Shown here: one piece after another, positions 56,431-62,914 of the stretch
Layout of the letters: each line of letters begins with the position of its first letter
How positions within the stretch are numbered: position 1 is the first letter of the stretch
DNA from: Chiloscyllium plagiosum
Taxonomy: Eukaryota
NCBI RefSeq assembly: GCF_004010195.1
Contig: NC_057718.1
Coordinates: 68,079,872-68,143,871, forward strand
Length of the DNA stretch: 64,000 nt
Reading direction: 5' to 3'
Program-made: the position numbers and the translations under genes
The notes under the pieces: model-generated
The model's database searches: none
What the model saw: the letters and a program-made list of their open reading frames with translations, nothing else
What the model was told of the DNA's origin: nothing

Positions 56431-57289
56431 GAGAAAGTGAGGTCTGCAGATGCTGGAGATCAGAGCTGAAAATGTGTTGCTGGAAAAGCGCAGCAGGTCA
56501 GGCAGCATCCAGGGAACAGGAGAATTGACGTTTCAGGAATGAGGATGCCCTCCACCGCATCTCTTCCACTTCCCGCTCCTCCGCCCTTGAGCCCCGCCCC
56601 TCCAACCGCCACCAGGACAGAACCCCACTGGTCCTCACCTACCACCCCACCAATCTCCATGTACAGCGCATCATCCGCCGTCATTTCCGCCACCTCCAAA
56701 CGGACCCCAGCACCAAGGATATATTTCCCTCCCCTCCCCTATCAGCTTTCCGTAGAGACCACTCCCTCCGCGACTCCCCTACCAGATCCACACCCCCCAC
56801 CGACCCAACCACCACTCCCGGCACCTTCCCTTGCAACCGCAGGAGGTGCAACACTTGCGCCCACACCTCCCCCCTCACTTCTCTCCAAGGCCCCAAAGGA
56901 AAATTCCATATCCGCCACAGATTCACCTGCACCTCCACCCACATCATCTACTGCATCCGCTGCAGCCGGTGTGGCCTCCTCTATATTGGGGAGACAGGCC
57001 ACTTGTCTCAGTCAAATTCATCGAATTCAGCACCGCCTTCCTAACCTGCAATCTTCTTCCTGACCTCTTCGCCCCCCCCCCAGTCTGACCTATCACCCTC
57101 ACCTTGACCTCTTTCCACCTATCACATTTCTGACGCCCCTCCCCCAGGTCCCTCCTCCCTACCTTTTATCTTAGCCTGCTGGACAAACTTTCCTCATTCC
57201 TGAAGAAGGGTTTATGCCCGAAACGTCGATTCTTCTGTTCCTTGGATGCTGCCTGACCTGCTGCGCTTTTCCAGCAACACATTTTCAGC
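56431..57289 (+). mobile_element. Young Penelope-like (Neptune-type) insertion with inverted pLTR head and perfect 15-bp TSD
   Basis: TSD AGTGGTTTTTCCAAG at 56416-56430 and 57290-57304. Peptide PGTFPCNRRRCNTCAH...FTCTSTHIIYCIRCSRCGLLYIGETG (GIY-YIG). 56431-56545 is the inverted copy of the 3' pLTR. CpGs are retained. Confidence 0.93.
57196..57231 (+). ncRNA. Minimal type I hammerhead ribozyme motif in the Penelope pLTR (core intact)
   Basis: CUGAAGA (57200-57206), an extra A, stem II GGGU-UUAU-GCCC, GAAAC (57220-57224) and GUC (57225-57227). Palindromic ACGU stem III; short imperfect stem I AUUC/GAUU. Confidence 0.7.
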
Positions 57290-58914
57290 AGTGGTTTTTC
57301 CAAGTTTCCTTTTCATCAGTCATTGACTTTTGATGTTGAGGGAAAGGCAGAGACGGACAGGAAGAAAGGCTTTCACTCTTGCTTATAAAGCATCTTTTCT
57401 GCTCAGAAGCAGCTATTGATGAAGATCCATTCGTACATTAATAAGTTTGTTCATAGAATCCCTCCAGTGCAGAAACAGGCCATTCAGCACCACAATCAGT
57501 AACTACATGGCTCACCGTCAGATCATTTAAATCACCAATTAAATAGTACTTTGTTCTGATTAAGAGTCATTAGACTAGAAACATTAACTCTGCTTACTCC
57601 CCACAGACGCTGTCAGACTTGCTGAGTTTTGCTAACACTTTCTGTTTTTTTGTTTCACATCTCCAGTATCAGCAGTTATTTGTTTTTAGCTTTAAGAATC
57701 TTACACGTTTCGGTTAGCACATTCCCTATTCTTCTAAATTACAGTCAATAGAGTCCCAAACTGCTTAGCCTTTGCTCACAAGACAATGTGTCCAAACAAC
57801 AAATCATCCTGGTGAACCTTCTCTAAACTGCCTCCAATGAAATTATATCTGTCCTTTAAAAAGAGGACCAAAGCCACTCTCAGTACTCCTAATGTAGCCT
57901 CACCAGCATTTTATGCAATTACAGCAAGACGTCCCCACTATATACTCCAACTTCCTTGAAATAACAGCCAGCATTCCATTAACCAACTTGATTATCTGCT
58001 GCACTTGTGTGCTGGTTTACCATGCTAGCTGCACAAGTACCCGCCAAGTTCCTTTGATTTGTTGCTCTCTGCAGTTTTTCTCTATTTACATAGGTTTTTT
58101 TGTTCTGTCTTGTTGAAATAACTACACAGAGGCTGGTATACCGCCACCAAGTCACCCTTTATTTACTCGTGCATAGTACACCAGCTGTGGTCAGCCTCTG
58201 AAGCGAAGAGGTTCTGAATCTCCAGTTTATGTATTTTTTAAATTTTATTAACCAGTATAAATTACAAATGAACAGTTAATAATGAACAGCAGTTTACAAG
58301 AAACAGCAATTTACAGAGGAAAGGGGTGGCAAAGCCAGACCCCCAAACCCCAGCGTAAAACCAGTTCATAAGGAAAAGAGGGCAAACCTCGAATCTCAAT
58401 CCCCTGTTTATTTTTTTTTTCTTTGGGAGTGCTTATTTTTTTCCCCAGCATCCATATTGTGCTTGCGCAGGAGTGAGACACAGTGAAAGACACAAGGTGC
58501 ACGTATCTTAATTCAAATTTCCACCACCAGGAAGAAAAGAAACACCCGAGTGGCCAGTGACAAGCACTGCCCTTCACATCAAAGGGCAATGCTGTGTGAT
58601 CAAACAGTGAAGGGGAGGGCAGGGGCTAAATCAAAATAGAGTTGGAGGGGGAAATAATGCACTCCACTCCCTGCGGCGCCCACCTCTCCCTGAACAACTC
58701 CAGGGTGTCAGTGAATTCCCTGTTTATATTTTTTTTAATTTTTTTTTGTCCCCTCCCTGACAAAAAAAAATGGAGAATCCTGCACACTGATTCAGCTCCC
58801 TGAAAGCCAGCTCTGAGTGAACAGAGCCTCTGACAGCCCGTTTTTTTTTGTGTGGGGAAGCTGGTCCAGGGACAGTCCCCTTCCCCTCAGACACAGTCAA
58901 GGAGGAGAGTCCTT

Positions 58915-58936
58915 ACACACACACACACACACACAC
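58915..58936. repeat. (AC)n microsatellite
   Basis: About 11 AC units read directly. Confidence 0.9.
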
Positions 58937-61638
58937 TGGTCCAGCTCCCTCCAGAGCCAGCTCTCAGAGTGAACAGGGTATCTGGCACTCCAGTTCTTTT
59001 TTTTTCTTTCCTTTTTTTTAAAAATCCCCCACACTACCACCTAAATGCAGTAGTACTTATTTTCCCCCAACACCCATGGTGTGTGTGTGCAGGTGAGAGA
59101 CACAAGGTGTACAAATCTTTATTCAGTTTCCACCACCAGGAAGAAAGGAAACACCCGAGTGGCCAGTGACAAGCAGTGCCCTTCACATCAAAGGGCAATG
59201 TCGTGAGATCAAACAGTGAAGGGGAGGGCAGGGATTCAATCAAATTAGAGTTGGAGGGGGAAATAATGCACTCCATTCCCTGCGGTGCCCACCTCTCCCT
59301 GAACAACTCCAGAGTGTTGGTGAATCCCCTGTTTATTTTTTTTTCCACCTCTCCCTAAACAACCCTAGGGTGTTGGTGGACACTGCGTGCTCTGTCTCCG
59401 GGGACACCCAGGCTTGCCTCCTGGTTTTTTTTTAAACTCCCACACTACCGCCTTACTGCGGTAGTACTTATTTTTTCCCCAGCACCCATGGTGTGTGTGC
59501 GCAGGTGTGAGACACAGTGAGAGACACAAGGTGCACGAATCTTTGTTTCCACCACCAGGAAGATAGGAAAACACCCAAGTGGCCAGTGACAAGCAGTGCC
59601 CTTCACATCAAAGAGCAATGCTGTGTGATCAAATCCCCTGTTTATTTTTTTTAATTTAACCCCCACACTACCGCCGACGTGCAGTAGTGCTTATTGTTCC
59701 CCAGCACCCATGGTGTGTGTGTGTGTGCAGGTGTGAGACACAAGGTGCACGAATCTTTATTCAATTTCCACCACCAGGAAGATAGGAAAACACCCGGGTG
59801 GCCAGTGACCAGCAGTGCCCTTCACATCAAAGGGCAATGCTGTGTGATCAAATCCCCTGTTTATTTTTTTTTCTCCCAGATCCCCGAGAATCTCCTGTTT
59901 AATTTTTTTCTATTTTTTTTCTGTTGTTTTTTTTTAATTTTTTTTATTTTAACCCCCACACTACCACCTAAGTGCGGTTGTGCTTATTTTTTCCCCCAGC
60001 ACCAATGGTGTGTGTGTGTGCAGGTGTGAGACACAGTGAAGGACACAAAGTGCACGAATCGTTATTCAATTTCTACTACCAGGAAGATAGGAAAACACCC
60101 GGGTGGCCAGTGACAAACACTGCCCTTAAATCCCCTGTTTATTTCTTTTTTCTTACAAAGTGCACGAATCGTTATTCAATTTCCACCACCAGGAAGATAG
60201 GAAAACACCCATGTGGCCAGTGACAAACACTGCCCTTCACATCAAAGGGCAGTGCTGTGTGATCAAAACAGTGAAGGGGAGGGTAGGGACTAAATCAAAA
60301 TAGAGTTGGAGGGAGATCCCCTGTTTATATTTTTTTTCTTTTTTTTCTTTTTTTTTCCATTTTTTTTATTAACCCCCACACTACCACCTAAGTGCGGTTG
60401 TGCTTATTTTTTCCCCCAGCACCAATGGTGTGTGTGTGTGCAGGTGTGAGACACAGTGAAAGACACAAAGTGCACNNNNNNNNNNNNNNNNNNNNNNNNN
60501 NNNNNNNNNNNNNNNNNNNNNNNNNNNNNNNNNNNNNNNNNNNNNNNNNNNNNNNNNNNNNNNNNNNNNNNNNNNNNNNNNNNNNNNNNNNNNNNNNNNN
60601 NNNNNNNNNNNNNNNNNNNNNNNNNNNNNNNNNNNNNNNNNNNNNNNNNNNNNNNNNNNNNNNNNNNNNNNNNNNNNNNNNNNNNNNNNNNNNNNNNNNN
60701 NNNNNNNNNNNNNNNNNNNNNNNNNNNNNNNNNNNNNNNNNNNNNNNNNNNNNNNNNNNNNNNNNNNNNNNNNNNNNNNNNNNNNNNNNNNNNNNNNNNN
60801 NNNNNNNNNNNNNNNNNNNNNNNNNNNNNNNNNNNNNNNNNNNNNNNNNNNNNNNNNNNNNNNNNNNNNNNNNNNNNNNNNNNNNNNNNNNNNNNNNNNN
60901 NNNNNNNNNNNNNNNNNNNNNNNNNNNNNNNNNNNNNNNNNNNNNNNNNNNNNNNNNNNNNNNNNNNNNNNNNNNNNNNNNNNNNNNNNNNNNNNNNNNN
61001 NNNNNNNNNNNNNNNNNNNNNNNNNNNNNNNNNNNNNNNNNNNNNNNNNNNNNNNNNNNNNNNNNNNNNNNNNNNNNNNNNNNNNNNNNNNNNNNNNNNN
61101 NNNNNNNNNNNNNNNNNNNNNNNNNNNNNNNNNNNNNNNNNNNNNNNNNNNNNNNNNNNNNNNNNNNNNNNNNNNNNNNNNNNNNNNNNNNNNNNNNNNN
61201 NNNNNNNNNNNNNNNNNNNNNNNNNNNNNNNNNNNNNNNNNNNNNNNNNNNNNNNNNNNNNNNNNNNNNNNNNNNNNNNNNNNNNNNNNNNNNNNNNNNN
61301 NNNNNNNNNNNNNNNNNNNNNNNNNNNNNNNNNNNNNNNNNNNNNNNNNNNNNNNNNNNNNNNNNNNNNNNNNNNNNNNNNNNNTTTTTAACCCCCACAC
61401 TACCACCTAAGTGCGGTAGTGCTTATTTTGTCCCCAGCACCCATGGTGTGTGTGTGCAGGTGTGAGACACGGTGAAAGACACAAGGTGCACGAATCTTTA
61501 TTCAATTTCCACCATCAGGAAGATAGGAATAACACCCGGGTGGCCAGTGACAAACACTGCCCTTCACATCAACGGACAGTGCTGTGTGATCAAAACAGTG
61601 AGGGGGAGGGTAGAGATCCCCTGTTTATTTTTTTTTTT

Positions 61639-61672
61639 ACCGAGCTAGTACTTTAACCAACTAAGCCAGAAC
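61639..61672 (-). pseudogene. Polyadenylated tRNA-Thr-like 5' fragment (or tRNA-derived SINE head)
   Basis: Minus strand GTTCTGGCTTAGTTGGTTAAAGTACTAGCTCGGT followed by an A tract. TGGCTTAGTTGGTTAAAG (61668 to 61651) equals the recalled D-arm of vertebrate tRNA-Thr. Confidence 0.6.
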
Positions 61673-62914
61673 ATCCCCTGTTTATATTGGTCAACCAGGG
61701 CTCCCTGATTGGTCGAGGTTAACAATCTCAATCAAGGATCTCATAGTGAATAAGATTCACCTGGTTCTAATCAGTACACTTCCAAAATTAACAGCTTCAC
61801 ATTATATTCCATTTGCCAATATTTTACACAATTAGCCTATCAGTATCTCTCTGTAAACTGTTTGTATCCCTCTCACAACTCACCTTTCCACCTATTTTTC
61901 AGTAGTCTGCAAACTTGGCTACAGTACATTAGCTTCCTTCATCCACATCAAACTTGATCAGTGGTGCTGTTGCCAAGTCCATCTTGATTGAGTTGAAGTC
62001 CTGTACCCGGAGTATGTTCTTTGCCCTTGCTATCCTTAGTACTTCTTCCAAGGAGTACGGATTCATCGACTGGTTGATGACAATCAGCAGGAGATTTGCC
62101 GATGTGTAACCTCCTGTCATGCTACTACATGAGTCGAGAATCGAATGTTGAGGATTCTCAAAGCCAGTCATTCCTGTCACTGCTGCCATCCCTGTTGTCT
62201 TTCTCCTGTAAACTCAATAGGAAGTGACAATAAATGGAAAAGTAAGTGTCTTAAGACAAATATGACTGTCAGATTTGATTGTGTAGATTAGGAGACAGTT
62301 CCCCAGTTGTAACACAAATGTTAGTGAGGAAGATTTTGCACAGTTATTTGGTCTGGAAGTTGAAGAGTTTTATGGACTAAATAAGGAAAAATCATATTGT
62401 TGCAAGTTATGATCTGAATTGCACTGGCTGATACGGTATTGGAAATAGAATTCGTTGTAATTTTCAACATACTATAAACTTGAAAAGAAGCAACTTGCAG
62501 CAGTATGGGAATAGAGCAAGAGTGTGAGACTAATCGGGTAGCTCTTTCAAAGAGTTGGCACACTTACATTGTGTTGAATGGTGTACTGCTCTGTAAGATT
62601 TCATGATTCTAATTGAGAATTCAATGAAAAATTATCGCCATTTAAGATTATCACTGCAAGTGCAGGGAAAGGTTGGGAAAATTTCTTTATGTAAGGACTG
62701 CTTTGTCACTGGTGAATTATATTAGTTTGTAAAATAATATAGAAGAAGAGTTAATTGCCGAAAAGGAAATCCAAGTAGTGATTAATTCTTTTTTGGTATA
62801 ATTGAGGAAAGTAACTTAATCCAGGGAGACCTGAATTTGCTGATTCTAGCGCACTTTACCCATCAGCAGTGAATATTCAAAGAACTATCTTTGTAATACG
62901 GATCTTCTAGGATT

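Follow-up and report, generated by a model that had tools for sequence, protein, structure and literature searches.

A tRNA-Thr-like insert at an LTR TATA box and the pseudogene-derived head of a putative Tx1-type LINE in Chiloscyllium plagiosum

The zebrafish elements Dewa and Mutsu belong to the Tx1 clade of long interspersed elements (LINEs), and TART is a telomeric element of another clade. Keno is also a member of the Tx1 clade (PMC4494074). Crocodilian Tx1 families with heads from U1 or U2 are described in the main text of Kojima 2015 (PMC4494074). They are Tx1-2_Crp, Tx1-4_AMi and Tx1-11_Crp, and SINEU is described with them. The same text reports that Tx1-4_AMi and Tx1-8_Crp prefer long terminal repeat (LTR) retrotransposons, that tandem insertions form around the target duplication, and that 5' extensions arise by template jump or transduction. 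Dewa, Keno and Mutsu are non-LTR elements that choose their sites, which are the spacer of a tRNA-Leu array, U2 and 5S, respectively (PMC3706591). The 5' end of TART of Drosophila repeats a subterminal part of its 3' region, and a template jump has been proposed for it (PMC1636488, PMC5537684). Here we describe a 34-nt insert, within positions 61615 to 61690 of a 64,000-nt stretch of C. plagiosum DNA (the window, on contig C9), that lies in an array of pieces of an apparent Tx1-type LINE. The genome searched was 3.56 Gb.

Probably, the insert is what remains, after loss at both ends, of a tRNA-Thr-pseudogene head that stands in front of this LINE. A single template switch likely captured the head, which likely spread as a passenger of read-through or spliced-together RNA. 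The element resembles the U1- and U2-headed crocodilian Tx1 families in its small-RNA-derived head, its tandem insertions at the duplication and its 5' extensions (PMC4494074). It differs from the crocodilian elements in the main text of that paper in that a tRNA-Thr pseudogene, leader and trailer included, is the source of its head, which is present in about two dozen copies and moves mostly as a 3'-clipped passenger. Like the small-RNA/LINE-1 chimeras, including tRNA/L1, it joins an RNA of polymerase III (Pol III) and a LINE in one insertion (PMC13174262). The human tRNA/L1 chimeras described there are mostly antisense halves and one-off events, whereas the head here is sense, full length and further spread. 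Like Dewa, Keno and Mutsu, this is a site-choosing non-LTR element; those target RNA genes or their spacers, whereas this one does not target tRNA-Thr in the assembly. Like that of TART, its 5' end repeats part of its own 3' region. Unlike in the TART reports cited, the repeat here runs from 15 to more than 1500 nt.

U1- and U2-headed Tx1 elements and LTR-targeting ones are already published from crocodilians; the tRNA-Thr-pseudogene head is a new variant. The literature offered no title or abstract on a tRNA-Thr-targeting, TATA-targeting or non-terminal-repeat Tx1 or on a shark Tx1 short interspersed element (SINE), in a search that covered neither Repbase nor subscription papers nor the supplements of PMC4494074, which may show TATA or tRNA-Thr targets. 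A small, young series is present in the genome, made up of tRNA-array pseudogenes, a full-length LINE with its head, copies of head plus tail, and clipped passengers. It illustrates the joining of a tRNA-like head to a LINE and the later spread of that head, and it would offer a testable case of how a SINE arises, provided that Pol III transcription is driven by the head. The repeat found at every Tx1 5' end examined may be more unusual than the head. The striking idea that the element targets tRNA-Thr genes is wrong and can be set aside.

The insert and its target site

The array lies in an LTR-like repeat on the minus strand. About 3.4 kb of pieces with A tails, interspersed with copies of the target word, interrupts this repeat at the TATA box. 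The 34-nt insert is the first piece of the array. It has a 13-bp duplication at both sides and 11 A behind it. The minus-strand order is the LTR 5' half, ATAAACAGGGGAT (61685-61673), GTTC, an 18-mer (61668-61651), TACTAGCTCGGT, 11 A and TAAACAGGGGAT (61627-61616). The ends of the insert are ambiguous: 61675-61673 (GAT) is common to the target, and 61638-61636 (AAA) is common to the A tail. The features at the insert are as follows.

61686..61778, minus strand: 5' half of the solo LTR-like repeat, with CCAAT boxes (84-90% identity to the 40 copies scored of 1931 candidates; termini of empty copies)
61673..61685, minus strand: 13-bp target duplication, 5' copy, which overlaps the TATA box of the LTR (the word is also in empty LTR copies)
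61636..61675, minus strand: fragment of the tRNA-Thr-pseudogene head, tRNA positions 1-37 (98% in the head search)
61651..61668, minus strand: 18-mer with full identity to the D arm of tRNA-Thr (A box)
61628..61638, minus strand: A tail of the insert, 11 A (sequence)
61616..61628, minus strand: 3' copy of the target duplication (sequence, target matches)

The target 12-mer TAAACAGGRGAT has 15 matches in the window at no more than 1 mismatch. The expectation was 1.03, and 15 was reached in 0 of 100 shuffles. Eleven of the 15 fall within 58218-61684; eight of these are exact with GGGGAT and one is exact with GGAGAT (59890-59901). A first-pass annotation of the window had described this layout of target and insert, and with the 12-mer recurring 11 times in the array its description is borne out. 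It was right about the 18-mer in the insert and wrong about the spacing, which is 12 nt, not 14, from the 18-mer to the A tract. The tRNA-Thr(AGT) that it invoked exists in this genome. Locus L022 is tRNA-Thr(agt) by ARAGORN and contains the 18-mer and TAAACAGGAGAT. The insert matches the D arm of this genome's tRNA-Thr at 18/18, as claimed, and the target matches the anticodon arm at 11/12 or 12/12. No tRNA was found in the window by ARAGORN or Rfam.

Tx1 lands mainly on the TATA box of the LTR repeat. Among 29 other LTR copies, 12 are interrupted at the target site (11 with a Tx1 match in the locus and 1 with the tail of a second element). The remaining 17, two of which look like one duplicated locus, are empty, and the motif or a close variant is native there. 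None of the 39 tRNA-Thr anticodon-arm sites matched in the genome carries the element (36 continue as tRNA-like and 3 were fetched without Tx1), in a pattern whose last letter would miss about one-quarter of interrupted sites. The difference between 12/29 occupied LTR copies and 0/36 tRNA-Thr arms has a Fisher p of 1.3e-5. When loci were chosen by the Tx1 tail, 19 of 30, window included, had this LTR on at least one side (by eye). Those of the remaining tail loci that could be read fall in other repeats or in unique DNA, where the A-rich sites are loosely similar; no tRNA is among them.

An A run joined to the tRNA-Thr 3' half had 0 genome matches at 0 mismatches. At 1 mismatch there were 10 matches: 7 are junctions in the LTR or an array, and the other 3 are tRNA genes that are intact. 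No Tx1 match was present at 36 of 37 tRNA-Thr gene, pseudogene or arm loci; the single match, at 69% identity, lies about 220 nt upstream. Across 87 Tx1 or LTR loci, the only tRNA-like match is at L113, and it is the head. Upstream of the 5' untranslated region (5'UTR) at 30 loci, tRNA-like sequence occurs only at the query's own locus, where it is the whole pseudogene. The proposal that tRNA-Thr is the primary target and the LTR a look-alike sink is wrong in this assembly and largely refuted. The variant target at 59888-59901, which had been linked to tRNA-Thr, is an LTR variant native to the empty copies L143 and L163. It is followed by a scrap of open reading frame 2 (ORF2); by eye, the 15 nt that follow TAAACAGGAGATTC are found in ORF2 of locus L100.

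The likeness of the target to tRNA-Thr is likely a coincidence. The tRNA gene aligned with 15 empty LTR copies better than dinucleotide shuffles did in 397/400 (mean) and 382/400 (best copy). The alignment is the 12-mer alone, and homology ends at 12 nt. There are some fifty tRNA families, so one 12-nt match to a tRNA is not rare. The likeness involves the isotype of the head and lies on the duplicated word, which would be a mild coincidence.

Three other origins for the likeness were considered. A tRNA-derived LTR was rejected, since the alignment ends after 12 nt. GGGGAT in the target could have been a relic of an earlier insert, but it is present in empty LTR copies, and this origin was rejected too. 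If the nicked target strand were primed within tRNA-Thr RNA, LTRs should contain tRNA halves without tails, and there were none among 39 sites. By eye, the sequence after the LTR was not complementary to tRNA-Thr in any of the 100 rows listed out of 157.

The LTR family search gave 1931 first-look candidates, of which the best 40 were scored. The target repeat may be a Gypsy LTR. Most of the 15 empty copies have TG..CA ends, and 3 have exact 5-bp duplications. A recurrent primer-site word follows the LTR end; it is presumably of tRNA-Ser type. Two gag- or integrase-like ORFs were read by eye inside the LTR element. Neither of these, nor one copy of Tx1 ORF1, had a Pfam match.

The tRNA-Thr-pseudogene head and its movement

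The element appears to be a Tx1-type LINE. L100 is a broken full-length copy with head, 5'UTR, ORF1, ORF2, 3' tail and poly(A), and it has the same duplication at both ends. The window array maps to its 3' end and 5'UTR by BLAST. A second copy matches RVT_1 (1.3e-31) and, below the cut-off, zf-CCHC (0.0068). A third matches zf-RVT (6e-5, below the cut-off). A motif for an apurinic/apyrimidinic endonuclease was read by eye in broken frames. The reverse transcriptase is 48% identical over 296 aa to the zebrafish pol-like protein BAC82609.1, which we take to be one of the Kojima and Fujiwara 2004 series. The element has a poly(A) tail, a 10-16 bp target duplication and a target preference, and poly(A) ends are seen in RNA reads. 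The putative Tx1 clade label follows from structure and the BAC82609.1 match. The tail is transcribed and polyadenylated. It had 1017 reads in about 2% of one poly(A) run, at a depth of 350-600 in one orientation and about 10 in the other.

The 18-mer had 72 genome matches, and its reversed control had 0. Forty-seven of the 72 were read (30 + 13 + 4 further head copies). Within the first 30 contexts, 11 besides the window continue exactly as the window does and reach a complete tRNA-like sequence that has a leader and a trailer. Scoring the best 40 of 45 candidates in a search with this head gave at least 23 copies at 22 loci on 16 contigs. All are in Tx1 insertions and are 92-100% identical to the query. 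The head matches the tRNA-Thr gene at 53/73. Its stems are Watson-Crick in 7/21 pairs (14 counting G-U), and its A and B boxes are intact. The window piece matches the head at 36/37 and the tRNA-Thr gene at 24/37. The insert had been suggested to be half of a host tRNA, and these counts speak against it. Its derivation from tRNA-Thr is supported, by way of the pseudogene head.

The leader and trailer of the head are 76-80% identical to Thr-like pseudogenes in a tRNA-array unit. True Thr genes do not share them. The unit was located on C8, C14 and a small contig. It is repeated at L047, L049-L051 and L053-L055, where a tRNA-Leu lies about 370 nt downstream of the Thr-like pseudogene.

The junction of the head with Tx1 sequence is a T5 run. 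Past this run, two copies enter the 5'UTR (L100, through the whole element, and L046), and four enter the 3' tail. The remaining 17 of 23 head copies end early at scattered points with A tails; three of them end at the T5 run and two in the anticodon loop. The full 5' end is kept in 21/23 copies and is preceded by AAACAGGAGTGTC in 19 and by a variant in 2. AAACAGGAGTGTC is the target word of another LTR type. The local duplication differs from the duplication before the head at 15 of 20 loci, agrees at 4 and is unreadable at 1. Because the local word is different at those 15 loci, the old duplication came along with the RNA or complementary DNA (cDNA), and the head likely travels inside read-through or template-switched RNA. 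The first-pass suggestion of a donor flank mobilised by the element fits this carried duplication. It had also asked whether a tRNA-Thr 5' half precedes full-length copies. One such copy does have tRNA-Thr-like sequence there, as a whole pseudogene with leader and trailer.

The innermost unit at L042, L044, L096 and L098 is a Tx1 tail, an A tract, the foreign duplication, a head piece and an A tail. This order appears to be the pattern of 3' transduction. The window copy and L046 lack the front of the head through 5' truncation, which in the window falls at a 3-nt match to the target end. A single donor for all transduced heads was considered and dropped: the 9 scorable of 21 upstream tails are 0.875 alike, compared with 0.886 for 17 background tails.

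The favoured account may be put in four steps. First, the Tx1 reverse transcriptase would finish its own RNA and jump onto the U-rich end of a Pol III precursor. This precursor would come from a tRNA-array pseudogene (leader, tRNA-like body and trailer). A template switch onto a U-ended precursor is suggested because the junction is a T run. Second, the chimera would sit in a GGAGTGTC-type LTR, and later copies would land in front of it. Third, RNAs would run through the A tail, the old duplication and the head, stop at scattered ends, be A-tailed and be reinserted elsewhere. Fourth, copying in the window would have halted at the fragment's only GAT, which pairs with the target end.

Several results weigh against this account. 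The exact source pseudogene of the head is not in the assembly, where the best match is 76-80%. With no single donor and several truncated ORF2 pieces, several donors or template jumps at A tracts are needed. The intact A and B boxes and the three copies ending at the T5 run fit Pol III. One poly(A) run revealed no RNA start site. The target/tRNA-Thr match lies exactly on the duplicated word, and shuffles reach it in 3/400 (mean) and 18/400 (best copy). The tRNA arrays are fragmented in this assembly, so Tx1 insertions there could be hidden.

Two related captures were seen. At L052 (also L176; G000:C26:10424818-10424922), a tRNA-Thr-like pseudogene has a trailer of 100 nt and is joined to a Tx1 tail at an LTR TATA site. 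It appears to be an older, independent capture of a related pseudogene. At L033:1847-1919 (reverse-strand coordinates), a complete pre-tRNA-Val(AAC), its leader, trailer and A tail included, sits inside a Tx1 array. Both fit capture by template switch. They are silent on enrichment for Thr because both were found through head searches.

Rival readings of the insert

The main rival is a young Pol III SINE. The head would be a working Pol III promoter, the head with the Tx1 tail would be a newborn SINE2 family, and the window insert would be a truncated copy. We regard this as possible and rather doubtful. The A and B boxes have stayed intact while the stems decayed, and three copies end at the T5 run after the trailer. 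Four copies (L031-L034) consist of head, repeat and Tx1 3' tail, and three of them reach poly(A). SINEU and the U1/U2-headed Tx1 elements are published parallels (PMC4494074). The family has a tRNA-derived head with both boxes, and a LINE-derived 3' tail in 4/23 copies. Copies that start at the head with a duplication of their own are not the pattern found, as 15/20 loci have a foreign one. In addition, 21/23 copies have at least about 18 nt upstream of the tRNA start, old target duplication included. A leader of about 18 nt or more is longer than usual for Pol III. The head-to-tail copies must pass two T5 runs, and the copy number is low. Head RNA is rare, with a depth of 1-2 against the 350-600 of the tail in a poly(A) run, a library type weak for Pol III RNA.

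A bolder version, slightly less credible still, has a tRNA-headed SINE at birth. A Tx1 with TART-like repeats would swap heads by template jump, would have taken a Pol III-competent Thr pseudogene and would have deleted its middle when the repeats recombined. Pairing of the anticodon arm to the nicked target may have given Thr an advantage.

It is improbable that the insert is a true 5' tRNA half. Trimming at +1 and a cut in the anticodon loop would have shaped a head-like RNA, which would then have gained an A tail and been inserted in trans. The piece does cover exactly positions 1-37, the region commonest in human tRNA/L1 chimeras (PMC13174262), and L048 has the identical end point. However, the +1 start coincides with the 3-nt target match, which is a sufficient explanation alone. 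The anticodon loop holds only 2/17 short 3' ends, and the others are scattered over query positions 22 to 124. RNase P trimming of the head is also doubtful, because the acceptor stem is broken.

Least probable is an endonuclease that evolved on tRNA-Thr genes, for which the anticodon-arm identity, a captured head of the same isotype and the Dewa precedent in zebrafish tRNA-Leu array spacers (PMC3706591) could be cited, against the uninterrupted arm sites, the missing junctions between A runs and tRNA 3' halves, the Thr loci free of Tx1, the end of homology at 12 nt and the non-complementary sequence after the LTR.

Array growth and repeats at Tx1 5' ends

The rest of the interrupted repeat contains the following features.

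58428..61616, minus strand: array of 5'-truncated Tx1 3' ends and Tx1 internal pieces, between A tails and target copies (BLAST to L100; repeats)
59873..59901, minus strand: variant target TAAACAGGAGATTC, then a short Tx1 ORF2 piece, with no tRNA sequence behind it (variant native to empty LTR copies)
58235..58398, minus strand: tail of a second poly(A) retroelement at the same LTR site (matches in arrays L035, L039, L040, L048 and L097)
58114..58229, minus strand: 3' half of the LTR-like repeat (sequence; matches LTR 3' halves)

The array contains a gap of N at 60476-61384. All 31 copies of the Tx1 5'UTR (30 loci, L061-L090) follow a copy of the element's own 3' region. This 5' repeat consists of the end of ORF2 and the early 3'UTR. 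It has one common end point and a median length of 64 nt. A head-to-tail dimer of full-length units (L171/L172, G000:C18:23.91-23.93 Mb) has no tail or A tract between the units, which are 86-95% alike. Sequence identity does not favour a jump within the same RNA as the source of the 5' repeat: the 5' and 3' copies within an element, at 86-92%, are no more alike than those of different elements, at 86-95%. A template jump explains the repeat no better than unequal recombination or joining to a resident copy does.

Units restart at the same duplication and the same 5' truncation point at L035, L037, L040, L042, L043, L044, L048, L059, L097 and L098. This suggests that each new cDNA joins a resident copy by homology and not by independent truncation. 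Four RNA reads have an A tail inside the Tx1 5'UTR region at L082:1325. This internal A tail fits the many short A-tailed internal pieces in the arrays.

The start of the Tx1 5'UTR at window 58897-58980 (minus strand), L119 and L123 resembles the LTR region right after the TATA box. The window variant of the 5'UTR contains more of the LTR-like start, at modest alignment scores. The likeness hints at a possible capture of a promoter from the target. Outside the array, window 56450-57290 contains a Penelope-like (GIY-YIG-type) fragment between direct repeats, read by eye from its translation. It is common.

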